Source: an uncultured Rivularia sp. (GTDB taxonomy: Bacteria > Cyanobacteriota > Cyanobacteriia > Cyanobacteriales > Nostocaceae). Taken from it: a stretch of DNA of 64,000 nt. The stretch lies in contig OY762007.1 in the NCBI GenBank assembly GCA_963665115.1, positions 4,256,001 to 4,320,000 on the forward strand, given 5' to 3'. Numbering within the stretch: the stretch's first letter is position 1; each line of letters begins with the position of its first letter. The notes beneath the pieces are model-generated. The model saw only the letters and a program-made list of their open reading frames with translations, made no database searches and was not told the origin of the DNA. Made by a program: the position numbers and the translations under genes. Below are positions 1-17,619 of this stretch, piece after piece.

Positions 1-564
1 CAGTATATTCCGCAGTTCGTACTATTTTAGCTGAAGTAACGATTTATCTTCTAAATAGATATATTTTATACAATTTATTTTTAGCATATTTGCCCTTTTA
101 AAGAAATCTATCTTTTGTCTGATTGAATAAATGGGCTTTCATTCGCTAACAAGGTAGAGAAGGAACACCGGAATATTGGTTTATGCAAAACTTTTTTAAA
201 CTTACGAGCAGTTTTTTTTCAAATGATTTCGATTTACTCATAAGTCGAGCTAATCGCAAAGCTATGTTAATTTTCTCAGTCGTTTTTACATAGGGAGAAA
301 TACGGCTCTTGTTCCGGAAAGTCGAAAATTGTAATGTAATCTTTTTCCGTTACGATAAGTAAATTGTGTAGTGTGTTCACATTCGGCACAAACTAAAGTT
401 AAAAATTTCATGCTCAACCCACCTAAAAAATATATGGGTTTTGAGAAAACACAAGATTGTAAGAGACGATTGTTGGAAGTATTTCTTTGATGAAGCCGCA
501 GGTACAAAGTTCTGGAATTCTGTGTAGAGTTATTTTACAAGAATTCGCGCCTTTCTTTTTAAGC

Positions 565-659
565 TGGAGCCATCTTGGAGCCACCTTTTATCGCTAGAAA
601 AATACAATTTCTATAACTCTTACTAATAATTAGGCTCCAGATGTCTCCAATTGTCTCCA
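565..659. repeat. Short repeats upstream of parM-like gene (candidate parC centromere/operator)
   Basis: TGGAGCCA at 565 and 576; inverted G(G/T)CTCCA at 633, 643 and 653 (10-11 bp period), directly before the ATG at 675. Confidence 0.45.
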
Positions 660-674
660 AATTTGAGCAGGTAA

Positions 675-1830
675 ATGAAAAAAAATACTGCAAAAATAAA
701 TAATTTTGACGATGCACCTTTTATTGTGATTAGCCTGGGACTTTGGGGGAAGCGGTACAAAGGGGATTTATTCGCTTTATCAAAACACCGAAGCACACTC
801 GCTATTTATGGAACCAGAAGTGATAAAGGTAACGTTAGAGTCTATCAAAAATTATGAACAGAATCTGATGGGAACAACTCATCCTGAGAATAGAGCTTGG
901 GTGTCTGTAAAGAACGAAACGAAAGCTGTCGGGTACTTAGCAAGGAACAAGTATTATGCAAATTCTGGACTTGTTGAACTAAAGTACGAACGAGCAGTTC
1001 ATAAAACGTTGGCTGCTATTTGGGTAATTAAAGAAAAACTCAAACTTCCATCTAAGCTAAGAATTGCTCTTTGTGTATTGTTTCCATCTGGAGAGTTTGA
1101 AAACAAAACAAGCTTTGAACAGTTGATTCGTGGCTGTTGTGCTGACTACTTAACACCTAGCGGCACGATGCAAGTTGAATGTGTGATGTTTAACTGTTTA
1201 CCCGAGGGTGCAGGAATATATCTATCGCATCAGAAGAAAGTAGGGGATGCGCTAAAACAGAAAGTGTGTGCGGTGGCAATGATTGGTTTTCGTAATGCAT
1301 CGCTATTAATTTCTCATCGAGGTGTTGTTTCAAGAGAGGGTAAAACGTCAGATTTAGGAATGATAAGGATGGTAGAAAAGGTTGTTGCTGCAACTGCGGG
1401 ACAAACTGTGGAGCGATTGACATCGGCAATTGCTATTTGTGGAAGCGAAATTGATACTCGTCCTTTACAAAAATTACTACGTTCTACTACTCAAGAAGGA
1501 CGCAATAATGAATTGACGCAACTTACGGGGGCAATTAAGTTTTCCCGACATGAATACTTTACCGCTTTAACAAGTTGGTTTAACCAAGTAATTCCAGCAG
1601 ATGTCGAAGAAATATTGTTTTGTGGCGGTACTGCTGACTACTTGAAAAAAGAATTGAATTCGTACTATCGGAGTACGCCATGCATCTTTTCTGGCATTAA
1701 CATTCCTTTATCAATAGACAATAATTCTCTCGGTTGCCGTTTAGCAGATGTTTACGGTGCATTTTTGTACTTCGATGAAATGGTTAAACAGCGAATTGTA
1801 ATTTCAAGTGAGGTAAATAATCGTGTCTAA
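675..1830 (+). CDS. parM: ParM/StbA-family actin-like plasmid segregation ATPase (apparent +1 frameshift at GGG 737-739)
   Basis: Removing one G joins ORFs 675 and 808 and restores the phosphate-1 motif ISLDFGGSGTKG; PEGAG, MIGFRNAS and FCGGTA actin-fold motifs also present. Confidence 0.8.
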
Positions 1831-2242
1831 ACGCCAGAATTTTCGCTGGCGATATCAACCGCGTAACAAGATGGATGTTTTAATGCTCGATTACATTATG
1901 AAGAGCGAAATTAGAAGTACCACAGAAATGATGCTGCTGTCGTTACGAGCGTTTTGGCTTCCACTTGCAGTTGCGCGATCGCCATATGAAGACAAAGCAA
2001 CTAAGGAACGCATAGTTACCGAAGCTTGCTGTACGTTGCTCAACCAACTCAATCAAATTTATGCTGCCGTTGGCTTTTCGCTGCCCAACTATCTACCGAT
2101 GCTTAATCAAGGAGAATTTGTAAAACAATCGCCTCCCGAGGAATCGAAGGATAAATCCACTCAAAATTCACCCAGCATCAACGAGCAAAAAAAAGCTGTT
2201 GGGCAATTTGATTATGACATTGATTCATTTAGTAGTTGGTAA
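1823..2242 (+). CDS. Small protein overlapping the parM stop; candidate ParR-like adaptor
   Basis: 139 aa, 8-bp overlap with parM, the usual position of the adaptor in type II partition loci. Confidence 0.55.
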   Translation: MSKRQNFRWRYQPRNKMDVLMLDYIMKSEIRSTTEMMLLSLRAFWLPLAVARSPYEDKATKERIVTEACCTLLNQLNQIYAAVGFSLPNYLPMLNQGEFVKQSPPEESKDKSTQNSPSINEQKKAVGQFDYDIDSFSSW

Positions 2243-2251
2243 TTAATAATT

Positions 2252-3224
2252 ATGGCTTTTCCACAACCTAAAAGAAAACGAGGCAGACCCTAGAAAGAAT
2301 CCTCTACCGTTTAATGTGGTATCTGAAACCGTGCAACCAATACAAGAAACTAATTATTCGCCGACTGAGCAAGTAGAAACGGATACATCATCAACCACTA
2401 AAAATTCAGAGTTTGAAGTAGAAGACTGGGAACGTGAGCTTGATGGTAATTTAACTTCAACTGATTTAAATTCACCAGATTCTACGCAGATTGAATCGCA
2501 TATTACTAATAATCTGCTAGAAAATTCTAAACAACAAACAAAAATCCATATTGTAGATTCAGAAAAAGGTGGTGCTGGTAAATCATTTTTCAGTAGAGCT
2601 TTTATTGAATACTGTGCCTTTAAAGATTTAGATGTCGCAATTGTAGATGCGGATACGAGCAATAGAGATATTGCAAAACTTTATGATGATGTTGAATTAG
2701 CATTTTTTAGCGATGATGAAAAGAAGGCTTCCTATGCCGATAAAATCTTTGATTTAGCATTTGAAAAGTCAGTAATTGTTAATTTACCTGCCCAAGTTTA
2801 CTCTAATGTAACTAACTGGATTAAACGTAATAATTTAACCGAATTGGGTAAAGAACATTCCATTTCATTTATTAAATGGTTTGTATGTACTGGCGGAGTT
2901 GATTCGGTCAATTTCTTCCTTAAATCTTTAGAGGATTTAGGTGATGATATCACTCACGTATTTGTCAAAAACTTGGGATTGTGCGATGAGTGGAACTACA
3001 TTGAACAAATGCCTGAGTTCGTTGCTGCTCAAGATAAATACAAGTTCATCGTTATGGAATTTCCCAGATTTCCATTTTGGGAACGCAATATGATAGACCG
3101 TTTAGAAATTACTTTTGAAAGAGCAGTTTCTCATCCTGAATTTAAAGCGGTATCAAAGCAGCGGGTAAAAAATTATCTCAGGAGGATTTATGCTTCTTTA
3201 GCTGCAACGGAGTTAATTGAATGA
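2252..3224 (+). CDS. MobD-like/ParA-type P-loop mobilization protein with N-terminal AT-hook (apparent +1 frameshift at CCC 2288-2290)
   Basis: Deviant Walker A DSEKGGAGKS, VDADTSN and VNLPAQ; removing one C gives MAFPQPKRKRGRPRKNPLPFNV in frame with ORF 2316. Confidence 0.65.
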
Positions 3225-3937
3225 GTACGGATGATGGTTCCAAAAATATAGAAGAAAAACCAAAAACTCCGGATGATTTACTTGCTCAAGCTTTGAAGGG
3301 GAAGAGTGAAGAGTTTAAGCAACGAGTAGTGGATTTCGCTTTTAGAAGTGGCTTATCAAAAGATGACCCATTATTTCTGGTACTGGTTGCAACGGGACAA
3401 TTGGAAGCAATGTTGCAGGATGCACCAGAAACATTAAAAGTACTTTTTAAAACTTGGAATCAAGATTTAGCAAATAATTTAGAGAAGGTAGAACAAGTTG
3501 CTGTTCAAAGACAGAAAGTAGCAATTAACCGAGCAGCACAGGCTTTGATTCATGAATCTTTGGTGCGTGAAGGTCGAAATATCATCAATTCTATTTATCC
3601 AGCTGCTATTGTATTCTTTCTGATTTTTGGGGCGGGTTTCATTGGTGGAGTTACGATACCACCTTGGATTGTTGGTGTGTTAGGGAAGGGATATACCTTG
3701 GTGAAATCAAATACTTTGACTTGGAACGAGTTGAACGCGATGAAGTGGGCAATGTCGAGTGAAGGTAAATTTGCGAAAAATTTGATTGATTGGAATCGCG
3801 GTTATTTAGACAATAAGGAATGTATCAAGGATGCTCAAAAATTGGGTGTAGTTTTATCGCAATACAACCGCAAAGCAAAGTCAGGATTTTGTACCATTTG
3901 GGTGGTTCCGGCAGGTAAACGTAAATTTGGTTCTTGA
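3221..3937 (+). CDS. DUF6753-like cyanobacterial plasmid membrane protein
   Basis: DDPLFLVLVATGQLEAML motif, coiled region and one TM segment; 4-bp overlap with the MobD-like gene. Confidence 0.6.
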   Translation: MSTDDGSKNIEEKPKTPDDLLAQALKGKSEEFKQRVVDFAFRSGLSKDDPLFLVLVATGQLEAMLQDAPETLKVLFKTWNQDLANNLEKVEQVAVQRQKVAINRAAQALIHESLVREGRNIINSIYPAAIVFFLIFGAGFIGGVTIPPWIVGVLGKGYTLVKSNTLTWNELNAMKWAMSSEGKFAKNLIDWNRGYLDNKECIKDAQKLGVVLSQYNRKAKSGFCTIWVVPAGKRKFGS

Positions 3938-4274
3938 ACCCAAACAATAAAGTTCTAAACTAAGACGTAAATTCGTAAACTAGGTCGTAAAGTTATAAAC
4001 TAACTGTCACATATAGGAATCGGGGTTAGATTTGGAGAAAGAATCTTGAACTATAACTTTTGAGACTTGTTAACCGTTTTTTAGTAAAACCTTTGAGTGC
4101 TTTAAATTAACAAGCAATGTGACAGTTTGGAACTTTATTGTTTGCAGTTTCTTACTAACCAGCAGTTTTACACCCACACAGTTTACAACTTTCTTTTTTT
4201 GCTCTTTGTAAATGTCAACGTAATATCAAGGCTTTCGGATATTTGTCAGTTTACAACTTTATTGTTTGCTTACA
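3935..4274. mobile_element. Non-autonomous mini-element bounded by Tn7-like ends
   Basis: Right end on the - strand reads TGTAAGCAAACAATAAAGTTGTAAACTG, with spaced sites at 4123-4144 and 4179-4198. Left end reads TGAACCCAAACAATAAAGTTCTAAACT, followed by two more contiguous 20-bp sites. Both resemble Tn7 TnsB sites. No target-site duplication seen. Confidence 0.55.
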
Positions 4275-4348
4275 CACCTTGAGCTTAAATCATCATCGCA
4301 AAAACGCTTATGGAAGATTTACCACAAGCGTAATAACTAAATCCCAGA

Positions 4349-4555
4349 CTAAAACTCTTCACCATCATCAGTCCAAGGAGTCTCTAGCATTTTTCTTTCA
4401 TATAAAGCAATTGCCTCTTTCTCTTTCTCATCTTGTGGGTCATAAAAATCATCGTAATTTGCATATCCCTCGCTCAGAAGTTCTTCAGGGGTCATCGATG
4501 CCATTACCTGGTATCTACTTATTTTTGGTTTCTGATTCATTGGCTGTTGATTCAT
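4349..4555 (-). CDS. Small acidic hypothetical protein
   Basis: 68-aa ATG ORF divergent from the polymerase-like gene. Confidence 0.5.
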   Translation of the reverse strand: MNQQPMNQKPKISRYQVMASMTPEELLSEGYANYDDFYDPQDEKEKEAIALYERKMLETPWTDDGEEF

Positions 4556-4659
4556 CTGTCTAACCTGTTAACTGATAACAATATTTATTCTAAATGTGAA
4601 AAACAAATTGTGTATTGCTCTGATTGTTAACAATTGTTCTTTCCTCTTTTTATAGCGCT

Positions 4660-7600
4660 ATGGTTATAAAACTCAATCATTTCGATACTAAGACAAAGCA
4701 AGATACCGGAATTGAGGAAAAATTAGAGAATACGCTAGCAGAATACTTATTTCCTGGTGTTGAGTTTCGCATTGGCACTGCTTACCCTGAAGCCACTATT
4801 CCACAAGATTTAGAAGAACACAATGGAATGACTCTACAGTTCTCGGCTCGTAAAAGAATGTATTTTGCAAACGATCCAGATGTACGCTCATTACTCTACC
4901 CAAACCCTTCTGATGGTGCTGCTTATCCTCTACCATTTACACCTTGTCGAAGTTTTCACGAGTTGCATAATATTAGGATACTGGTAATTGATGATGTAAC
5001 GGGAGATTCAGGTGGAATTATTGCTACGAGTGATGCCAAAAAATTAGTTGGTGATTGTAAAGGCTTAATAGATAAAGATTTTGCCTCCTCGAACAATATA
5101 GAACCGCGTGCTTTTCAATTCAGACTTGGTATCAGACCTCAAAAACAAAGCCATGTGATGCGAATTGCTAAAGGTACGCTTGCACCCGAAAGACTAGATA
5201 AATTAGGAGAATCGAAATTACAGATAAGCGGTAGCGCTAGAAAAGGTACTATTAGAACCAGAACTGGATATGATATGGTACTGGCTACTTCTTCTTTTAA
5301 AGGTAGAAAAGGAGAAGACGCTATCAAACCTGGAGAATACCTATTTGATATAGGTTTAGGTGTTAAATCAGTCGCTCAATACAGACAACATAGTTTAGGA
5401 ACCCAGATTTTAGTTAATTATCCTCGCGCTGTCAAAGAAGAAATCTTACCAATTCTGAAGCAGCAAGCAGAAGAATTAGCATCATCACAAAAAAGTCCCA
5501 GGGAATTAGCCCAAAAATACGTTGAAAACTACGAACACCGCAAAGCACTTTTAGAAGATATTAAGAAGGAAACTATTACGGAAACAGATGAAAAATTATC
5601 AGAAAAACTAGCTATATTAGATTGCTTTTGTTGTAATACTGAAGATGAAGAAATTAACCAAGAAGAAGAATTAAGCGCAGAGCAAAAAGACTTATTAATC
5701 TATTCTTTATTAAAAGTAGATTTAAACAATTTTTGTCAACTAATTGAACATCCTAAAATCGTAGCCGAACTGCAAGAATTCGCTCGTAAAGAATGGGTTG
5801 ATATTGCTACCGGACGTTCAATAAAGTTTATGTCGGGTTTAGCTCAACCTAATTTAGATTTACAGGAAGATGAAATCTGTATTCCATATTTGAAAGAAGG
5901 TTTAGAAATTATAGTAACTCGTTCGCCTTTAATTAATTCAAATGGCGTAATTACCTTAAATAATAAACATTTACCGAAAATGCTATCGGGATGCGTTTAT
6001 ATAAATCCTAAAACAGCAATGGATAATATGCAGTGCGATTTCGATGGTGATTTACTAGCTTTTGCATCGAGTGAAGAGTTTCCAATAATGACAGAAGAAG
6101 TCAAACAAAAGAATTTACCTGTAAATAAGTACCCTGATATTGTCAAAAAAGAAAAAGTTCCCTATCAAGGAAGTTTTCCTGAAATTGCTGTTTCTGCGAT
6201 GGAAAATAAAATTGGGATTATTGCTAATGAAATTCAAAAAAATATTGCCCTTCGGTGTGAAATTGATGAATTACCGCAATCCATAAAAGTCGAATATATA
6301 CAAAAAGTTTCAACACATTTAAATTATATTTTATCAAAGCATAGTCATACAACTTTACAACTTCCAGAAGACAGATTAAATAGAATATATCAAATTGCTC
6401 GTACTGGTAATACATCTTTAGATACAAATCAAGTTGATATACAACTTCAATCCTTTAAAAAATTATTAAAAGATTATGTTTCAGAACTTAGTAACGAATT
6501 ACAAGTTGCTACTGACGGAGCTAAAAGTGCATTGCGACCTGATAATAATATTATTCAACATTGTCAAGTAGTAACTAGTTATAAAGAAGTAGAATGGCTG
6601 GCTGATAAGAAAAATACGGAAGCTTTTACTAATAAAGGTATGGCTACAAATGGTTTGAGTCCAATTGATTTAATGATTCAACAAACAAATCGAATATTTG
6701 AAGAAAACCAAATTATAGCTAGACCTATTGAACAATTTAGAAATCTTTATCCTACAATTGAATTTACCTCCGAACACAAACAGCAAGCTCAAAATATTAG
6801 ACATAAATATAATTCTTTAATAAAAGAACGTATTGAATTACAGGAAAGAAAAAAGATAGAACCGGGTGCTTATATAGTTATTAGTTCTCCAATAAGCGGA
6901 CGCAAATTAGAAGTTACTAATTTAATTAAATATGACATATCCAAAGATACTGAATTTTGGAATGCAACAGAACTTAGTATCACGATAAAACCAAGACAAC
7001 CTACTTTAAAATTACCCCATCCTTTATCTGCCTGTATTCAATATCAGACTCCTGAAGGTGTAAATAGAATTAAACCCATTGGCACAATTAGTATGAAATC
7101 AATGGCAGAAAATAATCTTAAACCTGGAATGACAATAAAACAAGGTAAAGTTGAATTTTACTTTGGAATTAGTCATAGTATGATTGATGCTTTGAAGCAG
7201 CAAACTCTTGAATACGTCGAGTCAATTAGAAATAGCACTCCGGATAATGAAAAGCTACAGCTAGCAGCTGCAATTCATGATATTAGTCATACCGAAGAAA
7301 ATAAAAATTATGTAGGACTAAAAAAGGCAGGTGTGGCGTTTTCTATATTTATCGACGAAGTTATAGGTCAATTAAATCAGTTACAGTTTACCCAAATGAG
7401 AGTGCTTGGTACTCAGTTCAATCATTATGCTAATCAAAACTTTGCTGGTGAAAAAGTCCCAATAAAATTTGAAAATGGAATTAATCCTCGTGCCCCCAAT
7501 CAAACTGCGCGTTGGATAATAGTAGAAGGTAAAAAACTCGGTACTATCAATGGTTCTTCCCCTCATTTACTTGCTGGGTGTGAAGCAATTGCTAGCATCA

Positions 7601-8457
7601 ATTCTCTTTCCAGTAAAAGCGTAGTTATTACTAGTTCAAAAAATCCCGATAATAAATTGCAGATTGATAAGGTTAATAAATATGCTTTTAAATCTAATCA
7701 GTGGCAGAATGAAGAAGCGAATATTGCTTTAGCTATAGGACAAACTAACCCTAGGGGCGCACCAACTGTTTTCGCAAAAGTAGATAATAAAATATTAGGA
7801 ACCGTTAATAAAAAATCAGTCAAATTTTTACAAGAAAAACTTAACGCTGTTGGTAAATCAATCCAGGGATTTACGTTTTCTGGTACTTTAAAAAATGCTC
7901 CTGCTAGCTATGCGGATATTATAATTGACCCCTCGACCGTAAAATTTCCACAAATTGAAACTAGCTCACAACAGGATAATAAAAGCTTGATTGAAAGTAA
8001 TGAGCCTGTTTGCACTGTTTTATTTTTTGAAGCATCTGTAGATAGTAAGTTTCAACAGAAAACAGAGCAAATAATGGCTAATATGCTTAAACGGGCTGTT
8101 GAACGTGCGGTGGAGTTAGGTTACTCCAAGGTACAGTTTGTTGATGTTTCTACAAATACCACAGAGTCTTCAGCTTTAAGAACTGTTGAACAACTTACGG
8201 CTGAACACAAAGATATTAAAGTTGATTTTATAGGTGGTGCGTCCGTAGAAGATGCAATTGGACTGATGAAGAAACCAACAGATATTGTAATTGGGATAAA
8301 AAATACTCAAACCATTGGCATGATTGATTTTGTCGCTGCTCAAGGAAAGGCGATCGCCACTTACAATCCCCAAACACAGAAATTTGATAGACGGAATTTA
8401 CCTGCTCCGAGAAAGACTGCTGAAATAACTAAAGATATTGAACGCGACGAACGTTGA
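4660..8457 (+). CDS. Single-subunit two-barrel (eukaryotic RdRP/YonO-like) RNA polymerase-like protein with putative C-terminal SLOG/YspA-like domain
   Basis: GDCKGLI (5050), AFQFRLG...AKGTL (5110-5181), IVTRSP (5911) and catalytic-type CDFDGD (6034-6051) in the expected order; ATG 4660 preferred over TTG 4624. Confidence 0.7.
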   Translation: MVIKLNHFDTKTKQDTGIEEKLENTLAEYLFPGVEFRIGTAYPEATIPQDLEEHNGMTLQFSARKRMYFANDPDVRSLLYPNPSDGAAYPLPFTPCRSFHELHNIRILVIDDVTGDSGGIIATSDAKKLVGDCKGLIDKDFASSNNIEPRAFQFRLGIRPQKQSHVMRIAKGTLAPERLDKLGESKLQISGSARKGTIRTRTGYDMVLATSSFKGRKGEDAIKPGEYLFDIGLGVKSVAQYRQHSLGTQILVNYPRAVKEEILPILKQQAEELASSQKSPRELAQKYVENYEHRKALLEDIKKETITETDEKLSEKLAILDCFCCNTEDEEINQEEELSAEQKDLLIYSLLKVDLNNFCQLIEHPKIVAELQEFARKEWVDIATGRSIKFMSGLAQPNLDLQEDEICIPYLKEGLEIIVTRSPLINSNGVITLNNKHLPKMLSGCVYINPKTAMDNMQCDFDGDLLAFASSEEFPIMTEEVKQKNLPVNKYPDIVKKEKVPYQGSFPEIAVSAMENKIGIIANEIQKNIALRCEIDELPQSIKVEYIQKVSTHLNYILSKHSHTTLQLPEDRLNRIYQIARTGNTSLDTNQVDIQLQSFKKLLKDYVSELSNELQVATDGAKSALRPDNNIIQHCQVVTSYKEVEWLADKKNTEAFTNKGMATNGLSPIDLMIQQTNRIFEENQIIARPIEQFRNLYPTIEFTSEHKQQAQNIRHKYNSLIKERIELQERKKIEPGAYIVISSPISGRKLEVTNLIKYDISKDTEFWNATELSITIKPRQPTLKLPHPLSACIQYQTPEGVNRIKPIGTISMKSMAENNLKPGMTIKQGKVEFYFGISHSMIDALKQQTLEYVESIRNSTPDNEKLQLAAAIHDISHTEENKNYVGLKKAGVAFSIFIDEVIGQLNQLQFTQMRVLGTQFNHYANQNFAGEKVPIKFENGINPRAPNQTARWIIVEGKKLGTINGSSPHLLAGCEAIASINSLSSKSVVITSSKNPDNKLQIDKVNKYAFKSNQWQNEEANIALAIGQTNPRGAPTVFAKVDNKILGTVNKKSVKFLQEKLNAVGKSIQGFTFSGTLKNAPASYADIIIDPSTVKFPQIETSSQQDNKSLIESNEPVCTVLFFEASVDSKFQQKTEQIMANMLKRAVERAVELGYSKVQFVDVSTNTTESSALRTVEQLTAEHKDIKVDFIGGASVEDAIGLMKKPTDIVIGIKNTQTIGMIDFVAAQGKAIATYNPQTQKFDRRNLPAPRKTAEITKDIERDER

Positions 8458-8492
8458 ATTTGTATCAACCTATAACAACGGATTAGCGTAAA

Positions 8493-10310
8493 ATGACAAT
8501 GCTTTTTGATATCGAGCAATATCACCATCGGGATTCACAACATCACAAAGGTGACTGGGATGGTGTAAAGTACGATTCTGCTTGGGATGATGGTTCTGCT
8601 TTTCCACAAATTAACCATAAAACTTCTTCAAAAGAAACAGCACGTAGTAAGAAAACAGACTGTTGGTATACCCCACCTCATATTATTGAATTAGTTATCC
8701 AGGTTTTGGGAGAAATAACTCTTGACCCTTGCGCCGATGATGGACGACATATAAGAGCAGCAAAGCATTATACCTTTGATGACGATGGGTTGAAGCAGCC
8801 TTGGTACGGGAAAGTTTATATGAACCCTCCGTACTCACATCCTGGTCTTTGGATGAAGAAGCTGCAACTAGAATTTGAAACGGGTAATGTGGATGAAGCA
8901 ATTGCTCTTGTACCTGCTGCTACCGATACCAATTGGTTATCTCCGGTTTTGAAAACTCAACCTGTATGTTTTTGGAAGGGGAGAATTAAGTTTTTAGGTC
9001 AAGATTATCAACCAAAATTATCTGCAAGACAGTCTCATGTGTTGGTTTATTGGGGTAACAATTGGCAGAAATTTAGGGAAGTATTTGAAGACTATGGAGT
9101 GGTATATTTCCCAATTCCCCCTGTTGATAATAACGAGGTGCTAGGGGAAAACATATCACTTAACAATTCCCCTAGCACCCGGATGGAAGATAAGAGCCAA
9201 ACCCTTGATAATAGTTCATCAACATCAAATCTTTCAAATGCTCAACTAAGTAATGATGACCAGGTGCTAGGGGGAAATATATCACCTAACAATTACCCTA
9301 GCACCCAGATAGAAGATAACAGCCAAACCCTTGATAGTAGTTCATCAACATCAATTCTTTCAAATACTCAAATAAGTAATGATAACCAGGTGCTAGGGGG
9401 AAATATATCACTTAACAATTCCCCTAGCACCCGGATGGAAGATAAGAGCCAAACCCTTGATAATAGCTCATCGACATCAATTCTTTTAAATACTCAAATA
9501 AGTAATGATGACCAGGTGCTAGGGGAAAACATATCACCTAACAATTCCCCTAGCAACCGAATAGAAGATAATAGCCAAACCCTTGGTAATAATTCATCAA
9601 CATCAATTCTTTCAAATACTCAAGTAAGTAATGATAACCAGGAGAAGCGGGAAAACATATCACCTAACAATTCCCCTAGCACCCGAATAGAAGATGGAAG
9701 CCAAACCCTTGATAGTAGTTCTTCAACATCAAATCTTTCAAATACTCAAGTAGGTAATGATAATCAGGTGCTAGGGGGAAATATATCACTCAACAATTCC
9801 CCTAGCACCCGAATAGAAGATGGAAGCCAAACCCTTGATAATAGTTCTTCAACATCAAATCTTTCAAATGCTCAAGTAAGTAATGATAACCAGGTGCTAG
9901 GGGGAAATATATTACCTAACAATTCCCCTAGCACCCGGATAGAAGATGAAAGTCAAACCCTTGTTAATAGTTCATCAAAATTAAGTCATGCAAATACTCA
10001 ACTAAGTAATGATGACCAGGTGCTAGGGGGAAATATATCACTAAATAATCCCCCTAGCACCTATCGTAAACGCGGTGAGGGCAGCGGTAATATTTCATGG
10101 GGTTATGCAAATGCTAATAGCACTAAAAAGAAACCAGTCAAACAGCTTTATTTCGAGTGGGAATATAGGGGTAAAAGAGGAAAGACTTATGTGCGATCGC
10201 ACTTCTTCGAGCAAGTTATTTCAATGAATGAAGCGAAAGTTCCAGTTGTAGTGATATTGAAATTATTAACTTACAATCCAAAAGTAGCGGGTGCTTTGGG
10301 TCTTAATTAG
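8493..10310 (+). CDS. Phage-type DNA N6-adenine methyltransferase with internal 42-aa tandem repeats
   Basis: DCWYTPP, LDPCA, YMNPPYS, ALVPAATDTNW and GRIKF motifs; S/N-rich repeats; basic C-terminal domain. Confidence 0.8.
   Translation: MTMLFDIEQYHHRDSQHHKGDWDGVKYDSAWDDGSAFPQINHKTSSKETARSKKTDCWYTPPHIIELVIQVLGEITLDPCADDGRHIRAAKHYTFDDDGLKQPWYGKVYMNPPYSHPGLWMKKLQLEFETGNVDEAIALVPAATDTNWLSPVLKTQPVCFWKGRIKFLGQDYQPKLSARQSHVLVYWGNNWQKFREVFEDYGVVYFPIPPVDNNEVLGENISLNNSPSTRMEDKSQTLDNSSSTSNLSNAQLSNDDQVLGGNISPNNYPSTQIEDNSQTLDSSSSTSILSNTQISNDNQVLGGNISLNNSPSTRMEDKSQTLDNSSSTSILLNTQISNDDQVLGENISPNNSPSNRIEDNSQTLGNNSSTSILSNTQVSNDNQEKRENISPNNSPSTRIEDGSQTLDSSSSTSNLSNTQVGNDNQVLGGNISLNNSPSTRIEDGSQTLDNSSSTSNLSNAQVSNDNQVLGGNILPNNSPSTRIEDESQTLVNSSSKLSHANTQLSNDDQVLGGNISLNNPPSTYRKRGEGSGNISWGYANANSTKKKPVKQLYFEWEYRGKRGKTYVRSHFFEQVISMNEAKVPVVVILKLLTYNPKVAGALGLN
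9137..10061 (+). repeat. 126-bp tandem repeat (7 full units plus a partial eighth), each with an internal inverted repeat
   Basis: GGTGCTAGGGG-N21-CCCCTAGCACC starts at 9137, 9263, 9389, 9515, 9641 (degenerate left arm), 9767, 9893 and 10019. Confidence 0.95.
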
Positions 10311-10339
10311 CTATCTTTTTTCATTTATCAACCTTTGCC

Positions 10340-10948
10340 TCAATTGCGTATATCTTTCCTGAGATTTTCTTGAGCGGACACACATACCAATAGCTTTCTT
10401 ACTCCCAACAATAATCGCCAACATATAGCATGAGTTAATCCTGTATAAAGCAAATTCCTGTTCAACATAACAAAATGTTGCGAGTACAATGGCAACAATA
10501 CAACAGGATATTCCGAACCCTGGGATTTGTGAATGCTAACGCTCCAAGCCAAAGCCAGTTCGTTTAAATCAGCATAATCGTAAATAACTTCGCGTTCTTG
10601 GAACTTGACAATTACTTCCTGTTCTTCGGTGTCAATATGAATAATAAAATCCATATCACCGTTAAAAACTTCCCGTTGGTAATAGGAAGGTTAATTGAAT
10701 TACCCTATCCCCTACTCGAAAAATTATTCCGCCTCTAGTTACTTCAACCTTCTGGGGGACTAGGAGGATTAATGAGTTTTTGCAGTACGTTGTTAAGATT
10801 GCGCGTACCTACCAAGCCGTTTCAACAGCTTGATGTTGTTCGGGTGATAGCGAAACTTTACGGCTTTGGCTAAAACGTTCTAACCAAGTATGAACACGGG
10901 GAATGTCGGGATTAATGGGTTGATGTAAACGAGAAAGTATAAGTTGCG
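10340..10948 (-). pseudogene. recD2: RecD2-like SF1 helicase remnant with internal deletion and frameshifts
   Basis: LALAWSVSIHKSQGSEYPVV...RNLLYTGLT, plus upstream fragments GLVGTRNLNNVLQ, FRVGDRVIQ and LSPEQHQAV in other frames. Confidence 0.8.
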
Positions 10949-10955
10949 CTAGGTT

Positions 10956-11999
10956 TTGTTCGGTGTGGAAGAAGGTTGGTTTGTAACGACGAGCAATGTA
11001 GATTCAGCATCACGTTCTCTAATTAATTCATCCGAGCGCGACATATCACAGATGACTTTTGTTAATCCATCCTCATACAAAGACGTTGCTCTTTCTCCCG
11101 CACCTTTAGATGTCACCATGCGTCGGGCTGGGGTAATGATGAAACCATATTTTACTCTCACTCGAAATTATTACCCTAAAAACAATAACTTCTTTTATGC
11201 TGCTCACTGGTGGCATCCAGCGGTTTATGAGTCAATGATGATCGGTGGAAATGACTCAGAGCAAGACAAAATGCTCAACCAAATGGAAGACGTATTTCAG
11301 TCGGAGGTAATTCCTAATCCACCAATGAGAATGTTGCTGACTCGTGAAGGTGCGCCGCGCTATAGCCGTTTATCTCCAGAAACTGCGAATGTTTTCGACA
11401 ATCTACATATGCTCCACGGTATTACCTACGATATCTTTGCCTACGACGGTTGGACAGTTGAGCAAAAGCGAGCCGAACTTTATCGCGTGCTTAAAGCTCT
11501 AGGCTATCAACATCATCGAGTTAATCATCATCATCGAGTTACTACACCCAAACCCAATTTTAATCCTTTAGCTTACGATGAGTGGGCTAAAAGTGCTGAT
11601 GGCTCAATAACGCGGATGATGATGGAAATGATGCAAGAAATGATGCCAATGATGCACGCTTCGATGAATTCGGGAATGCGATCGCCAATGCAGAGGAATA
11701 TGAATGGTGGAATGAGCCAAGAAATGCATCAAAAAATGATGGCGCAGTTAAAAATGAAATTAACTCCCGGTATTCAGTCAGGGGAAATTCCCGGCTCTTG
11801 GATGGATGCAATGAAAGTTTTGATGCCAAATATGAAAATGTCAGCGGAAGCAATGCAGCCAGGAAAAATTAATCCGATGATGGTAGAAGCCATGCTCAAG
11901 GGTTGGCAAGAAAAATACGGTAATTTGCCCGATATCGAATCTATATCAATGGATACCGAACCCTCTGCACAAGATATTTTGGCACAAACCCAAAAGTAA
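10956..11999 (+). CDS. Met/His-rich hypothetical protein, probably N-terminally truncated
   Basis: HWWHP, DNLHMLHG and a very Met-rich C-terminal half; weak TTG start next to the recD2 remnant. Confidence 0.55.
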   Translation: MFGVEEGWFVTTSNVDSASRSLINSSERDISQMTFVNPSSYKDVALSPAPLDVTMRRAGVMMKPYFTLTRNYYPKNNNFFYAAHWWHPAVYESMMIGGNDSEQDKMLNQMEDVFQSEVIPNPPMRMLLTREGAPRYSRLSPETANVFDNLHMLHGITYDIFAYDGWTVEQKRAELYRVLKALGYQHHRVNHHHRVTTPKPNFNPLAYDEWAKSADGSITRMMMEMMQEMMPMMHASMNSGMRSPMQRNMNGGMSQEMHQKMMAQLKMKLTPGIQSGEIPGSWMDAMKVLMPNMKMSAEAMQPGKINPMMVEAMLKGWQEKYGNLPDIESISMDTEPSAQDILAQTQK

Positions 12000-12034
12000 A
12001 ATCTCTTTTCTTAAATTACACAATCTATACATTT

Positions 12035-12815
12035 ATGAATATACAGAAATTGAAATGTACAGGTATCATAGCTGGATTATTTTTAGGATTAACAGCGATT
12101 ATTTCTTTTCCTAAAACTGCTCAAGCTGCCGACCATTTAAACTTAGAAGAAGGATTACCAACGGAAGTTGAAGATGCTTACCCCATACCCTACAAAGGTA
12201 TCGAATTACAAGGAGTCACCAAATATGACCGGATTAACGGCAAAGATAGTTTTGTCATTGAACCGCGTGTAGAATACGCTATCGCTCCTAATACTCAAGC
12301 TACAATCTCGGTTCCTTTTCAATTTGGTTCCGCAGAAGATGATGGTATTAGTGATGTGGGAATAGAATTTTTGTACAACTTCAATGCCGAATCTTTGAAA
12401 ACTCCTGAAGAAAGCAGTTTCTGTTGGTGCGAATGCTCCTTATTGTGAAGGTAGTGCTGGAGTTGTGTGTAGAGTTAAGTTAATTATGACCAAAACCTTG
12501 GGTGCTGGAGCTAATCTAGATAGACTTCATCTCAATGTTGGTTATACCTTTAACGATGCAAAGAAGAATGATGAAAGAAGAAATGTTGTTAAAGCGGTTG
12601 CAGGTTACAGTCGTCGTTTGGGTTCGTCCACTATATTGGTGACGGATTTTGTTTACGAACAAGAAAAAGAAGATAGTGTTGATGCTTATATTTTAGCTGC
12701 CGGTATTCGTCAACAAGCTACACCGATTACAGTTTGGTCTGTTGGTGCTGGAGTTGGATTAAGTGATGATTCTCCAGATTTTAGAATTACGGGTGGAATT
12801 CAGCAGTCTTTGTAA
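12035..12815 (+). pseudogene. Outer-membrane beta-barrel/transporter-like protein split by a frameshift near 12405-12413
   Basis: Signal peptide, amphipathic beta strands, C-terminal ...ITGGIQQSL; the +1 frame continues AVSVGANAP into ORF 12465. Confidence 0.6.
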
Positions 12816-12970
12816 TTATAGATATTTTCCGAACGGCTGCAACTACTTTACTACTGCACAATTAATGCATTGGGTGGGCTTTTCCATAAGTCCACCCTTT
12901 CACAATGCCAGAAAAATATATCTTTTTTTACTTGTACTCTTAAACTATTCATATTTAACAAAGTTTGTAG

Positions 12971-13435
12971 TTAACTTAAAATTGCTTGCTTGAGCTTTTC
13001 TCGCAGTTGGTTAAGTACTTTCACCGCAACCTGTAACTCTTCTGCGTTCATATCTTCGGCAAGTATTTCGGCTGCTTGAGCATTTTTAAAAGTAAAGTCC
13101 TCAAATAATGTTTCTCCTTTCGCAGTTATGACTAACAGCTTTGATGTTTTATGCGCTGGATTATCAACCGACTCAATCAAACCTTCTTTTATCATTTCAT
13201 TGGCTAATTTCTGAATACCTTGACGGGAAACAGGACGAGAACGAGCGATTTGAGCGACTGTCTGCGCTCCTTCGTTTTTTAAACTATTTAGCATTCCCCA
13301 ATAACTACCCGATGATTTTATCGTTCCCATACGTTTACCTCCTTCCCGCAACAAGAAATAAGTGTAGGTTGTCTCGATAAAAAGTTCTTCCATCGCTTTT
13401 CCTGCCTGGGTTCTGGCCACGGGCTTGTCTTTCAT
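12971..13435 (-). CDS. MarR-family transcriptional regulator
   Basis: wHTH QTVAQIARSRPVSRQ...DNPAHKTSKLLVIT; GGGAG RBS before ATG 13435. Confidence 0.85.
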   Translation of the reverse strand: MKDKPVARTQAGKAMEELFIETTYTYFLLREGGKRMGTIKSSGSYWGMLNSLKNEGAQTVAQIARSRPVSRQGIQKLANEMIKEGLIESVDNPAHKTSKLLVITAKGETLFEDFTFKNAQAAEILAEDMNAEELQVAVKVLNQLREKLKQAILS

Positions 13436-13468
13436 TGCCAACACTCCCAATCAAATTTCATTAACTGT

Positions 13469-13510
13469 TTATGACAACTAGTTGTCATAATGGTAATTAG
13501 TTGTCATAAT
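13469..13510. promoter_or_regulatory. Probable MarR operator
   Basis: Perfect 22-bp palindrome TTATGACAACTAGTTGTCATAA (13469-13490) plus an extra half-site TAGTTGTCATAA, between divergent genes. Confidence 0.8.
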
Positions 13511-13533
13511 TCTAGTGTAATTGAATTCGTGTT

Positions 13534-14127
13534 ATGAACTATATTTCATCACAGTTTGGCAATCCTAGAGGAATCTTAGGGCGATTTTTTGGTCTGCTAA
13601 TGACACAAACTAATCAAGCCAAAGATCACTGGACAATAAAGATGCTTAACGTTGAACCCGAAGACCATATCTTAGAAATCGGATTTGGCTCAGGTGTGGC
13701 AATCCAAAAAATGTCTCGAATTACTAAATGCGGATTTATTGCTGGTATTGACCGTTCGGAAGTTATGTTAAATCAAGCAAGCAATCGAAATAGACAGGCT
13801 ATTGAACGGGGATTGGTTGAATTGAAACATGGGGAAGTTGCACATTTGCCTTATGGGGATAAAACCTTTGATAAAGCCATAAGTAGCAACTCCCATTTTT
13901 TTTGGATTAATCCGGTTGAAAGTTTAAAAGAAGTACGTCGAGTTTTGAAACCGGGTGGATTGATTGTACTTACTTGGCAACCGAGATGGGCAAAAACGGA
14001 AGCCATGCTGACCGAAAGCGCTCAAAACACCAAAGCGCAACTTAAAGTAGCGGGATTTATTGATATTCAACTGAAGTTTAAAGCGATGAAACCTGTATAT
14101 TGTATCTGCTTGCAGGGAATTAAATAG
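13534..14127 (+). CDS. Class I SAM-dependent methyltransferase
   Basis: ILEIGFGSG, GIDRS, LPYGDKTFD and RVLKPGG motifs. Confidence 0.9.
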   Translation: MNYISSQFGNPRGILGRFFGLLMTQTNQAKDHWTIKMLNVEPEDHILEIGFGSGVAIQKMSRITKCGFIAGIDRSEVMLNQASNRNRQAIERGLVELKHGEVAHLPYGDKTFDKAISSNSHFFWINPVESLKEVRRVLKPGGLIVLTWQPRWAKTEAMLTESAQNTKAQLKVAGFIDIQLKFKAMKPVYCICLQGIK

Positions 14128-14153
14128 TTTCGGAAGCATTACTGGAGAACGCT

Positions 14154-14648
14154 GTGATTTTAAACATTGCTCGATTACTTAGTCTTGTGCTTACTTCAAT
14201 TGCCACAGGGGTAGCTTTATGTCATGCACTCGAACTTCCCAACAAAATGGCGTTATCTGCTTCTATGTGGCTCAACGTACAGAAGGTGTTATATAACGGC
14301 TTCGGCAAAATTCTGGGACCAGTAGAATATGGTGCTTTAGCGACAACTTTACTTGTGCTGTTTTTGGTTCGCAAGCAACGGAGAACTTTTATACTGACAT
14401 TGATTACTTCAGTCTTGATTGCTATAGCGCTAATAGTTTGGTTAAGCTTTGTTGGTCCAGCAAACCTCAGAGTTGATACTGCACTAACAGTTCCGATTGA
14501 TTGGATGCAGATACGCAATCAATGGGAGTATGGACACGCTACTCGTGCTGGTTTGTTTTTGGTAGCACTGATAACGTTGAGTCTCTCTATACTTTCCGAT
14601 ATACCAATCGGTAATAACCGGAATATGAGATATCGCGATAATAATTAA
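14154..14648 (+). CDS. DUF1772/anthrone oxygenase-like membrane protein
   Basis: Four TM helices; DWMQIRNQWEYGHATR motif. Confidence 0.7.
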   Translation: MILNIARLLSLVLTSIATGVALCHALELPNKMALSASMWLNVQKVLYNGFGKILGPVEYGALATTLLVLFLVRKQRRTFILTLITSVLIAIALIVWLSFVGPANLRVDTALTVPIDWMQIRNQWEYGHATRAGLFLVALITLSLSILSDIPIGNNRNMRYRDNN

Positions 14649-14690
14649 AGTCTTAAATATTGAGGAGAAGAATATTTTAATTAATTCTCT

Positions 14691-16058
14691 CTATGCCCTT
14701 TTAATTAATTTAGTACGAGATGATTGATTACAAGGTAATATAACAATGAAAGTGCTACCTTTTCCAACTTCACTTTCTACTTCCAAACTACCGTGATGAG
14801 ATACTACAATAGCTTTTGCAATTGCTAATCCTAAACCCGAACCACCAGTATGACGAGAACGGTCACTATTAACTCGATAAAAGCGGTCAAAAACGTTAGA
14901 AAGTTCATTCTTGGGAATACCAATACCCGTATCTTTGACTCGAACTTCAGCTTCCGTTTCATACTTATCTAAAATAACTGTGACTTCCCCACCAGGTAAA
15001 GTATACTGAATTGCATTTACTATTAAATTAGAAAATAAGCGATAAAGCTGTTCGGTATTACCAATAATATTTATTTCCTTGTTAATACGAATTTCCGATT
15101 TCAAGGTAACATCAGATGAAATTGCCATTGCTGCAAATTCTTCTATCAAGTCCTCAATAATATCATTTAAAGAACATAATTCCCGCTGTACAGAAAGGGA
15201 TTGTCTATCAAAGCGAGAAAGCATTAATAAATCTACTACTAAACTAGTAAGACGTTGATTTTGACGCTTGATAGTTCCGAGAATATCCCATGCTTCTTTA
15301 ATGTCTAAATCTGGCATTAATAAAACTGAATCTATTGTTGCTTGAATTGCGGCTAACGGTGTTCTTAATTCATGAGCAGCGTCGGCTGTAAATTGTTGAA
15401 TTTGTCTGTAAGATTGATAAATTGGTCGCATTGCTAAACCTGCCAACCACCAACTAGCAAAAGCAATCATTGTCATCGCTGTCGGTAATCCTACTAACAG
15501 ACTTAATTTAACTGCATCCATATAGCTGTTAACATCGGCTATATTTCTTCCAACTTGTAAATATCCCCAATCGCGATTATCTTTGGTGTGTAATTCTAAT
15601 GACATTTGATGGTAAAAATTACCAGTATCGTCTTGAATTGTTTGCCAAAGTTTCTGATTAAAATCTGAAGATTCAGCTTGTGGGAAAGAACCTGCAACTG
15701 CTATTAAACGTGCCGAATTACCAAACAAACGCACGTAATAACCTTGATGAATTGCGTTTAGAATATGTCGTTGAGCAGTAGAATTTTGCGATATGCAACC
15801 CGTTTCTACTACACAAATACTTGGTAAAACTTCTCTTACAATTGGTTCTACTTTTTCGGGCTGTTTTAGCTTGGATTCTAAATTATTATGTAAACTTCTA
15901 GCGACAAATTCTAATTCTCTATCTAAAGCTTCCGAATGAGCATGAGATACTGCGGTGTATAAACCTGAGCCGCAAACGGTTAAAATTAAACCCATAACAA
16001 TAGCATACCAAAGTGCTAATCGAAATCGAGTTCTTTGAAAAAGTTTATTTTGATTCAT
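14691..16058 (-). CDS. rppB: Sensor histidine kinase, RppB/NrsS/CopS-like
   Basis: Two TM segments, FTADAAHELRTP H-box, N/G1/F/G2 boxes. Confidence 0.9.
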   Translation of the reverse strand: MNQNKLFQRTRFRLALWYAIVMGLILTVCGSGLYTAVSHAHSEALDRELEFVARSLHNNLESKLKQPEKVEPIVREVLPSICVVETGCISQNSTAQRHILNAIHQGYYVRLFGNSARLIAVAGSFPQAESSDFNQKLWQTIQDDTGNFYHQMSLELHTKDNRDWGYLQVGRNIADVNSYMDAVKLSLLVGLPTAMTMIAFASWWLAGLAMRPIYQSYRQIQQFTADAAHELRTPLAAIQATIDSVLLMPDLDIKEAWDILGTIKRQNQRLTSLVVDLLMLSRFDRQSLSVQRELCSLNDIIEDLIEEFAAMAISSDVTLKSEIRINKEINIIGNTEQLYRLFSNLIVNAIQYTLPGGEVTVILDKYETEAEVRVKDTGIGIPKNELSNVFDRFYRVNSDRSRHTGGSGLGLAIAKAIVVSHHGSLEVESEVGKGSTFIVILPCNQSSRTKLIKRA

Positions 16059-16066
16059 GTTTATAA

Positions 16067-16762
16067 TTAATTCTTAAAATTAAAACGATATCCCATACCA
16101 TGTAAAGTTTCGATGGGATTTCCACAGCCGCTAGCAGCTAATTTTCGTCGTAATAAACGTACCTGTGCGGCTACTACATTGCTACTTGATTCTGCACTTG
16201 CTTCCCAAAGTTGATTGCGAATTTGTTCGGTTGTGAGAATTTGGTTGGGGTGGTTCATAAAATATTCTAGTAACTGAAATTCTTTGTTAGTCAAAGACAT
16301 TTCTTGTTTATCTGATGAAGCATTTTTATTAATTATTGTATTATTCCCATAGTCCAAAGTTAGATTACCCATAGTAACTTGAGGGGGTTGAAATTGAGGT
16401 ACCCTTCTTTGCAAAGCTCGTAACCTTGCCAATAATTCCTCCATCCCAAAAGGTTTCACTAAATAATCATCTGCCCCAGCATCCAAACCAGCTACCTTAT
16501 CTTCCATACTATCTTTAGCTGTTAACATTAAAACGGGCATCGCATTTTTATTCTGACGCAGTTTTTGACATAATTCCAATCCCGAGATTCCTGGAAGCAG
16601 CCAATCGAAAATACCTATTTTATATTCCGTCCATTTATCTTCTAAAAGCTCCCATGCTTCATTACCATCCATTACCCAATCAACTAAATACCTTTGTTGA
16701 GTTAAAATTCGCTTAATCGCTGCACCCAAATCCGGTTCGTCTTCTACTAATAGTATTCTCAT
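16067..16762 (-). CDS. rppA: OmpR-family response regulator, RppA/NrsR/CopR-like
   Basis: MRILLVEDE, FDWLLPG, GADDYLVKPF and NVVAAQVRLLRRKL. Confidence 0.9.
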   Translation of the reverse strand: MRILLVEDEPDLGAAIKRILTQQRYLVDWVMDGNEAWELLEDKWTEYKIGIFDWLLPGISGLELCQKLRQNKNAMPVLMLTAKDSMEDKVAGLDAGADDYLVKPFGMEELLARLRALQRRVPQFQPPQVTMGNLTLDYGNNTIINKNASSDKQEMSLTNKEFQLLEYFMNHPNQILTTEQIRNQLWEASAESSSNVVAAQVRLLRRKLAASGCGNPIETLHGMGYRFNFKN

Positions 16763-16823
16763 AAAACACCCATAAAATTTGAGTTTAATAAATTTCACTC
16801 TAAAAATAGATTTACATAAAATT

Positions 16824-16840
16824 ATGAAATTAGGATGAAA
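16824..16840 (-). promoter_or_regulatory. TTTCAT-N5-TTTCAT box upstream of rppA
   Basis: ATGAAATTAGGATGAAA on the + strand. Confidence 0.8.
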
Positions 16841-16982
16841 ACTAAAGCGATATCTCTTATTTACGCTATTTGAATGCTTTCAAGGTGGATTCTTTTTAAT
16901 ATTATTCTACTGTTTGGATAAAAAATATTGTTAATGAATCTAGGTTAAATTGTACAAATAACAATCTTCATAACATACAAGT

Positions 16983-16999
16983 ATGAAATCAAGATGAAA
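16983..16999 (-). promoter_or_regulatory. TTTCAT-N5-TTTCAT box between rppA and the Csp-like gene
   Basis: ATGAAATCAAGATGAAA on the + strand. Confidence 0.7.
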
Positions 17000-17099
17000 T
17001 CGACTTACATCAATAGTTAGAAATAATATTATTTCTTTTGTTAGATGGAACGGTGCTTTATTAGCGAATAATCTGAACACATAGTAAGTAATAAAAGCT

Positions 17100-17447
17100 A
17101 TGACGACTACTCAAACTCAGCCCTCCAATTTGGATTCTTGTATTCAAGTTTGTCTAGATTGCTTGAAAGATTGTGAAAATTGCGCCACTGCTTGTTTAAG
17201 CAGCGATATGGTGCAAATGATGTCGGAATGCATCAAATTATGTCGAGACTGTTCGGATACCTGCTCTCTGTGCGCTCGTTTGATGGTGCGTCAGTCAGGT
17301 ATTCATGCTCAAATGTGCGGTGTATGTGCTGAAGCTTGCGACCGTTGTGCCGCTGAATGTAGCAAACACGACAGCGACCACTGCCAACGCTGTGCCCAAT
17401 CCTGCCGTCGTTGTGCAGAGTCTTGTCGTCAAATGGCGACTGCATAA
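17100..17447 (+). CDS. Four-helix-bundle copper storage protein (DUF326/Csp3-like)
   Basis: Repeated CxxxC/CxxC motifs across 115 aa; no signal peptide. Confidence 0.9.
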   Translation: MTTTQTQPSNLDSCIQVCLDCLKDCENCATACLSSDMVQMMSECIKLCRDCSDTCSLCARLMVRQSGIHAQMCGVCAEACDRCAAECSKHDSDHCQRCAQSCRRCAESCRQMATA

Positions 17448-17592: not shown

Positions 17593-17619
17593 TGATGTAT
17601 AGTTGCTCGAATAAAGAAT

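Follow-up and report, generated by a model that had tools for sequence, protein, structure and literature searches.

In this study, we describe a single-subunit RNA polymerase-like protein, P0001, encoded in the chromosome of an uncultured Rivularia sp. within a 64,000-nucleotide stretch (contig OY762007.1, positions 4,256,001 to 4,320,000; hereafter the window), and we show that its family associates with the conjugation module of cyanobacterial mobile elements, of the mating-pair formation class MPF_C, and not with vegetative maintenance. The best reading of these findings, in which we place about even confidence, is that the polymerase is delivered together with the transferred single-stranded DNA (ssDNA) and primes synthesis of the complementary strand. 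This reading rests on the catalytic residues, a predicted fold resembling RDR2 and QDE-1, the tie to MPF_C and a position just past a match to a MOBV-type nick site. It rests also on a C-terminus shared with relaxases in Chroococcales, ER-type protein ends, fusions to primase, RNase H, helicase and anti-defence-type domains, a partial exclusion with MobF-DUF3854 relaxases, and a gyrA-linked VirB4 cluster that has neither relaxase nor type IV coupling protein (T4CP) in the 60 kb read and also lacks the polymerase (2 loci).

The polymerase gene and its catalytic residues

The open reading frame (ORF) is uninterrupted from an ATG at 4660 to a stop at 8457, with an in-frame TTG at 4624. In window coordinates, the gene and its parts are:

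4660..8457, + strand: polymerase gene (P0001), 1265-aa single-subunit two-barrel RNA polymerase-like protein
4660..6864, + strand: polymerase core, aa 1-735, predicted two double-psi beta-barrels with helical domains (AlphaFold, Foldseek, VIA)
6037..6051, + strand: DFDGD, predicted catalytic aspartate triad (D460, D462, D464)
6865..7176, + strand: beta module 1, aa 736-839 (hhalign to module 3, secondary structure)
7384..7614, + strand: beta module 2, aa 909-985 (hhalign to module 3; a HIRAN lead)
7615..7959, + strand: beta module 3, aa 986-1100, HIRAN-like topology as a lead only
8002..8394, + strand: degenerate YpsA/SLOG-like alpha/beta domain, aa ~1115-1245, clade-specific
8380..8454, + strand: charged, disordered C-terminus with an ER-type motif at its end, putative signal for translocation by a type IV secretion system (T4SS)

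The motifs listed in the original prediction, which was made from the letters alone, are all present in the stated order: GDCKGLI (aa 131-137), AFQFRLG (151-157), AKGTL (170-174), IVTRSP (418-423), MQCDFDGD (457-464), KPIGTIS (805-811), KKLGTIN (958-964) and KILGTVN (1044-1050), followed by the alpha/beta tail. Eight residues (D132, R155, K171, R421, P423, D460, D462 and D464) are invariant in 70/70 aligned homologs, a selection from 120 among the matches listed; loss of the aspartates in homologs had been named as a finding that would refute a polymerase. Moreover, a profile search of 1.84 billion representatives gave 455 proteins at E <=0.001, and among the best 150 of these 455 (representatives at 50% identity, used also for the counts of long representatives below) all eight residues are kept in 95-99% of aligned stretches, with 127-137 stretches per position (D132 125/127, R155 125/127, K171 122/127, R421 130/137, P423 134/136, D460 131/133, D462 132/133, D464 134/135). 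They correspond to the eight invariant residues of two-barrel enzymes, which in QDE-1 numbering are D709, R738, K743, R962, P964, D1007, D1009 and D1011 (PMC2919709), as mapped by motif order and not by residue-level superposition. Judged by its sequence, P0001 is a real and intact member of a computationally known polymerase family, and polymerisation of nucleoside triphosphates is predicted.

Searches of Pfam, NCBIfam and PDB sequences gave no meaningful match for P0001, and the Pfam RdRP profile (PF05183) gave none above its cut-off; a distant relative, P0262, barely passes that profile (24.7 vs a cut-off of 23.8 bits). The PHROGs search returned one unnamed family (phrog_34895), and a lactococcal phage protein is matched weakly (E 0.06).

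Predicted fold of the core

The AlphaFold (AF2) model of aa 1-735 has a predicted local distance difference test (pLDDT) score of 84.8 and a predicted template modelling score of 0.80, and points to a double-psi beta-barrel fold like that of RDR2 and QDE-1. Foldseek, proposed together with AlphaFold as a check on the original prediction, matched this model to maize RDR2 (E 2e-10) and QDE-1 (E 6e-10) and further to Thermus phage gp64 and gp62, the phi14:2 virion polymerase and P23-45 gp96; Rpb1 is matched as well. In VIA comparisons, RDR2 gave Z 16.5 (rmsd, root-mean-square deviation, 4.2 over 477 residues), RNA-dependent RNA polymerases (RdRPs) as a group gave Z 13-16.5 across the whole core, and gp64, with two barrels in a single chain, gave Z 15.1, whereas multisubunit enzymes reached Z <=11.5 and aligned over one barrel only. 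The model thus predicts that P0001 falls within the two-barrel RNA polymerase superfamily, with two double-psi beta-barrels forming one active site, and within its YonO-like/RdRP-like single-subunit branch, since both barrels lie in one chain that is nearer to RdRP than to multisubunit RNA polymerase. The proposal of a single-subunit RdRP/YonO-like enzyme is upheld by the matches to RDR2, QDE-1 and gp64.

RDR2 and QDE-1 being the closest solved folds, P0001 could be a true RNA-dependent RNA polymerase that acts, in silencing or counter-defence, on RNA of the element or the host. We regard this as highly improbable, as no Argonaute, Dicer-like or RNA-processing neighbour occurs among the annotated recurrent families, and both the fusions and the gene context of the family concern DNA. 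QDE-1 structures have been solved on DNA templates, according to their PDB titles.

Association with MPF_C conjugation

In PLSDB, 92 plasmids match the core; those among the matches listed are all cyanobacterial and include pCC7120alpha and beta. Two queries combined give at least 94 distinct polymerase plasmid records. An MPF_C VirB4 is encoded by 59 of the 60 best PLSDB polymerase matches, and 79 of the 94 polymerase plasmids are also among the VirB4 matches listed (117 of about 130 VirB4 records, on which all VirB4 plasmid tallies are based). The agreement extends to clades at depth: the same six plasmids head the polymerase and the VirB4 lists for queries from the host element, and another common plasmid set heads both lists for the L102 clade. 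The polymerase gene occurs in 29/201 genomes; outside the Rivularia genome, as read by eye, 13 loci lie 7-32 kb from a VirB4, and two more are each on a plasmid-size contig together with one. The homolog of pCC7120alpha (WP_010999746.1), reported to be the only cyanobacterial plasmid shown to transfer (PMC8600333), is 8 kb from that plasmid's MobV gene. MPF_C itself was defined with eight profiles, and no experimental studies of it had been found in that work (Guglielmini 2014, PMC4027160).

A gyrA-linked chromosomal VirB4 cluster carries no polymerase, relaxase or T4CP in the 60 kb read (2 loci). pCC7120gamma has no polymerase, and its MobF relaxase carries DUF3854. On VirB4 plasmids, a MobF-DUF3854 relaxase is found in 19/38 without the polymerase vs 11/79 with it, in counts that include kin and are not independent. 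The gyrA-adjacent cluster, possibly a secretion system that has been domesticated, is MPF_C-like (VirB3/4/6/8/9/10) and was seen in two genomes (L095-L096, L106-L107); about a dozen others have a similar VirB4 clade.

C-terminal region and domain fusions of relatives

In Chroococcales, the polymerase shares homology over its C-terminal ~100 aa with the MobP relaxases of the same elements, at their C-terminus (pairwise within L071, 33% over 122 aa with E 7e-12; tail-class hidden Markov model, HMM, E 3e-21). ER-type C-terminal ends mark T4SS substrates, and the last residues of P0001, modelled with pLDDT <50, end in such a motif. With a pattern that was chosen after inspection of the protein ends, E[RLM] falls in the last 5 residues of 29/93 long diverse representatives vs 152/3090 genome ORFs, an enrichment of about six-fold, and such an ending is present in 37/56 full-length members from related loci. 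Two conserved proteins found beside T4CP or VirB4, a 455-aa family (L002:12482-13853) and L102:6706-8751, have the same acidic end motif and are possibly further T4SS substrates.

Among 51 representatives, mostly long ones, the polymerase is fused to cpYpsA (4), YAcAr (1), NADAR (2), DUF4326 (3), RNase H or RNase H-like (2), RecD-like helicase (1) and Prim-Pol (1) domains, and three other relatives have RNase H, DUF3991 and DUF3854 fusions. The Prim-Pol domain is N-terminal in P0187, the RecD-like helicase is found in P0230, and in P0109 DUF3854 is inserted into the helical domain of the polymerase. DUF3854 we take to be Toprim-like; one DUF3854 fusion is annotated 'DNA primase' in one source. 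SLOG, NADAR and DUF4326 have been predicted to counter defences based on nicotinamide adenine dinucleotide (NAD) and ADP-ribose (PMC9503650).

These features bear on the proposal that the enzyme stays in the donor as a YonO-like polymerase dependent on double-stranded DNA (dsDNA), transcribing the long transfer operon upon induction of the element. YonO, the characterised bacterial relative, transcribes prophage genes (PMC5467207), a prophage-like sister clade of ~890 aa exists (L098-L101; quick tree), and co-occurrence with VirB4 would be expected here too. However, a donor role leaves unexplained the relaxase-shared domain, the anti-defence-type fusions and the ER-type ends, which are absent from the four prophage-like members read, and homologous T4SS operons occur without the polymerase, so that we judge it improbable. 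In the sister clade, a conserved gene of 440-540 aa precedes the polymerase gene and an HU-like gene follows it, with RNase H, ligase and DUF4326 genes nearby.

The three beta modules are, by profile comparison, true internal repeats (hhalign modules 1/3 P 94.9%, E 5e-8; 2/3 P 97.8%, E 7e-13; 1/2 P 19%). The original prediction of three repeated modules is therefore supported as to homology, but the GxLGTI motifs lie about two-thirds along each module and not at its end. It had also suggested that the repeats may be HIRAN-like, and for this Atlas gives a lead: it places the modules near HIRAN at 0.85-0.86, under its own threshold of 0.9, and the top-10 named matches of module 3 all belong to the HIRAN family or clan (best 0.86). 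The HIRAN profile PF08797 matches 0/47 modules, however, and hhalign of the modules to a shallow HIRAN alignment is not significant. With a multi-domain C-terminal model, Foldseek gave weak and non-specific matches only (PDB, BFVD), and the VIA search, dominated by the tail, had no HIRAN among the matches listed.

For the tail, suggested as perhaps SLOG/YspA-like, the top structural match is YpsA (2nx2; Z 8.8, rmsd 2.9, 112 residues), with LOG at Z 8.1 and five further SLOG entries among the matches listed. Fucosyltransferases and CARF, however, are level with it to within 1 Z, and Pfam SLOG does not match. A glycine-rich nucleotide-binding loop is a feature of the YpsA clade of SLOG, and no such conserved loop was found in an alignment of 68 tails. 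The tail is an interchangeable module, with 153 tails sorted into classes of 82 (including P0001), 31, 30 and 7 plus three singletons. No alignment of the P0001-type tail was obtained with relatives' cpYpsA or YAcAr domains, and in the relative P0061 this tail is triplicated. A MobP-like identity of the P0001 tail was considered and rejected, because the initial HMM match came from mixed tail classes and the tail of the P0001 clade has no relaxase match in the loci examined.

Predicted origin of transfer and neighbouring genes

Gene families were counted across 79 loci, many of them truncated. The features around the polymerase gene are:

362..383, + strand: putative origin of transfer (oriT) hairpin, loop matching the MOBV nick site (9-mer, pMV158), predicted nick between 375 and 376
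808..1830, + strand: ParM-like actin, start probably further upstream (family 2, 48/79 loci; a paralog matches Pfam ALP_N and a homolog is annotated ParM/StbA)
1823..2242, + strand: putative ParR-like adaptor, from its position (family 1, 49/79 loci; no Pfam or NCBIfam match)
2316..3224, + strand: TraL-like P-loop protein (NF010461 E 1e-10, below cut-off; 44/79 loci)
3221..3937, + strand: DUF6753 protein (PF20538 E 8e-101; 45/79 loci)
8493..10310, + strand: Dam-type N6-adenine methyltransferase with tandem-repeat linker, directly downstream (PF05869 E 7e-18; 15/79 loci)
10340..10654, - strand: RecD2-like helicase gene remnant (PF13538), followed by metal-resistance cargo

MobV itself is present in 36/79 loci. 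The loop of the hairpin agrees with the nick site of pMV158 (PMC3105389). Its 9-mer has a single occurrence in the window, on the + strand, and 32 genome-wide. In the relaxase-parM intergenic regions (n=29) it is exact on the + strand in 15, nearly matched in 9 more and exact on the other strand in 0. If the nick falls at 375/376, the polymerase gene is predicted to lie 4.3 kb into the leading region. The methyltransferase gene is downstream of the polymerase and on the same strand in all 15 loci that carry it; its linker is a 126-bp (42-aa) tandem repeat (window 9,100-10,050), and relatives' genes range in length from 237 to 689 aa. Downstream on the minus strand, related loci have an intact RecD2. 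The ORFs of six conserved families, RecD2 and DUF6876 among them, have this orientation in 68/68 cases in which they are downstream.

This orientation is relevant to the main rival of the priming reading, in which the delivered enzyme has a different role, that of an early transcription polymerase, like that of the N4 virion, which would express leading-region genes from the incoming ssDNA before the second strand is made. The evidence for transfer is the same as for priming, the predicted transferred strand would be the template of those 68 minus-strand ORFs, and Foldseek also matches the virion polymerases phi14:2 and P23-45 gp96. Against this, the immediate co-oriented genes parM, traL and dam lie on the transferred strand itself, and the RNase H, Prim-Pol and DUF3854 fusions together with the partial MobF-DUF3854 exclusion suit priming better. 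We think it unlikely that early transcription is the enzyme's role, although the two roles are compatible and not exclusive.

The neighbouring genes also bear on the role first suggested for this gene, that of a primase or initiator in the vegetative replication of the plasmid or excised element, and a replication-primase role has been proposed in print (PMC3417536). Consistent with it, the polymerase adjoins ParM or the adaptor in 48-49/79 loci and ParA/ParB in 6-7, and it is usually single-copy on large plasmids. On the other hand, the gene tracks VirB4, ParM flanks the relaxase also in pCC7120gamma, which lacks the polymerase, and the element has a separate 742-aa zinc-finger protein (L001:15110-17335), a candidate primase-helicase by a weak phage match (PHROG 1139, E 9e-4) and a candidate for the element's replication protein. 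A vegetative role seems to us quite improbable. Most Rep proteins of large Synechocystis plasmids were reported to be unknown (PMC10899382).

Proposed role in conjugation

Taken together, P0001 would be an active single-chain RNA polymerase, exported through the T4SS of its element with the transferred strand, that lays RNA primers for the complementary strand. MobV would nick at 375/376, and the + strand would enter the recipient first. The charged C-terminus, or in some relatives the relaxase-shared domain, would recruit the polymerase to the coupling protein, and the three HIRAN-like modules may hold ssDNA. The core would then make RNA de novo on ssDNA, for extension by a host DNA polymerase, and the SLOG-like tail could serve as cargo against NAD/ADP-ribose defences of the recipient, as could the SLOG, NADAR and DUF4326 domains that relatives carry. 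Catalysis, translocation, template choice and the roles of the modules and the tail are all matters that we infer. There is precedent for such delivery, in that the primases TraC1 and SogL pass to the recipient in conjugation (PMC5512222).

Several observations weigh against delivery and priming. Fifteen of the 94 polymerase plasmids are not among the VirB4 matches listed, and ~24 genome loci, read by eye, are on contigs without a VirB4 match, some of them of the prophage-like sister clade. Fine-scale distances of the core correlate weakly with those of its neighbours (Spearman 0.09-0.22, 27 loci), and co-divergence at that scale is not supported. The exclusion with MobF-DUF3854 is partial, since 11 plasmids carry both and 19 VirB4 plasmids neither, with kin among them that are not independent; a strict mutual exclusion was rejected. 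The ER motif occurs in only 6/33 MobV relaxases, the HIRAN identity of the modules is a lead and not established, and the tail HMM of the P0001 clade has 0 matches among the non-polymerase ORFs of the loci examined, that is, the relaxase-shared domain is absent from this clade. Lastly, the only characterised bacterial relative in the literature examined, YonO, is a phage DNA-dependent transcription polymerase (PMC5467207).

With somewhat less than even confidence, we propose a third class of transferred primase in cyanobacterial conjugation: an injected polymerase of RdRP fold that primes the incoming strand, may also transcribe it, and brings anti-defence domains along. If this is true, close bacterial structural relatives of the eukaryotic RNA interference polymerase gain a concrete job as ssDNA-templated enzymes, the long-noted bacterial RdRP-like family gains a function that bears on the origin of the eukaryotic enzyme, and MPF_C conjugation gains its first mechanistic part. 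The proposal is directly testable, as pCC7120alpha, a plasmid with reported transfer, carries a homolog.

The host element

G000:C1:4,227,199-4,366,628, window 1..64000, no strand: 139,430-bp element splitting hupS and containing the whole window (hupS parts, conjugation genes)

The polymerase gene is chromosomal, within one 8.69-Mb contig whose closest relatives with a name are Rivularia. Immediately to the left of a recombinase gene is the 3' end of hupS, and the remainder of hupS lies 139,430 bp away; hupS is therefore split by an element, and the window lies entirely within it. Upstream of the window are an XisF-like serine recombinase (NF041201 above cut-off), an MPF_C T4SS (VirB4, VirB10), a T4CP and the MobV relaxase. 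With a recombinase, chromosomal insertion, relaxase, T4CP and mating-pair formation genes, the host element is, by its gene content, an integrative conjugative element (ICE). The gene is thus element-encoded, as had been proposed, but the 'plasmid backbone' of the original prediction does not hold for this copy.

Single-base insertions break VirB4, T4CP, the 455-aa protein, AAA, MobV and XisF in the assembly. These insertions are absent from short-read contigs (1-3 runs, one study) and look like assembly errors; a decayed element is therefore rejected, and an intact one is probable for the same reason. The only junction represented in the short-read contigs is the left one, in its integrated state. 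The chromosome holds three further polymerase copies (four in total), two of them in tRNA-targeting elements: an intact copy, 72% identical, in a tRNA-Phe element (G000:C1 5,882,103-6,012,98x), an internally truncated one in a tRNA-Cys element (G000:C1 1,62-1,64 Mb to 1,767,704), and one near a lone T4CP, frameshifted as assembled (G000:C1 6,059,003-6,062,086).

The element splits hupS 24 codons before the gene end, and uptake hydrogenase would require its excision in heterocysts. The adjacent hupL is interrupted as well, by a second element (~9 kb) that encodes a tyrosine recombinase (L001:678-10947). The recD2 remnant is separated from the usual downstream genes by ~78 kb of cargo for resistance to copper, heavy metals and arsenic (window 10,956-64,000 and beyond), with resistance-nodulation-division (RND) pumps, P-type ATPases, two-component systems and sigma factors.

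Comparison with known systems

The cyanobacterial YonO-like/RdRP-like family has been described before (Ruprich-Robert and Thuriaux 2010, PMC2919709; PMC5467207), and Aravind et al. 2012 (PMC3417536) reported an RNase H fusion, seen again here in L079 and P0216, and proposed a primase role in selfish elements. P0001 belongs to this family by its eight invariant residues and cyanobacterial occurrence. The available text of PMC2919709 and PMC3417536 places the family in 'main genomes' or selfish elements and says nothing of conjugation, MPF_C, a leading region or tails shared with relaxases. The family and the general primase idea are already published; the tie to conjugation, the leading-region position and the relaxase-shared tail in relatives set this member apart and give it a role that can be tested. 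In agreement with the view that the cyanobacterial relatives are known only computationally, no functional study of the family was found in the literature searched, most subscription papers being outside that search.

RDR2 and QDE-1 are the best structural matches of the core (Z 13-16.5, ~470-510 residues). In contrast to them, at 10-16% identity, P0001 has no Pfam RdRP match, is found in a bacterial mobile element and has added beta repeats and a tail. The phage polymerases SPbeta YonO, Thermus phage gp64/gp62/gp96 and the phi14:2 virion polymerase likewise have two barrels in one chain; they are phage-encoded, and YonO transcribes dsDNA, whereas P0001 is on a conjugative element.

The host element resembles the heterocyst gene-interrupting elements (Hilton et al. 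2016, PMC4874684) in that it splits hupS and begins with an XisF-like serine recombinase. Those elements average 41.5 kb vs 139 kb here, the host element has a full conjugation module, and the available main text of PMC4874684 has no match to 'conjug'. A conjugative element in hupS connects heterocyst excision elements to ICEs.

As to the conjugative primases and polyvalent proteins, PMC5512222 reports few polyvalent proteins in cyanobacteria, and its available text has no match to 'RdRP'. P0001 shares with RP4 TraC1, R64 SogL and the polyvalent proteins (PMC5512222) a proposed job, namely transfer with ssDNA and priming in the recipient, often as a multi-domain protein, and it is found in the setting of a conjugative primase, a conjugative element with T4SS, T4CP and relaxase. 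TraC1 and SogL have Toprim or Primpol folds, whereas P0001 has the two-barrel fold. Therefore, P0001 may work like a conjugative primase but, having neither a Toprim nor a Primpol domain in the model, would not be a member of that group by fold.

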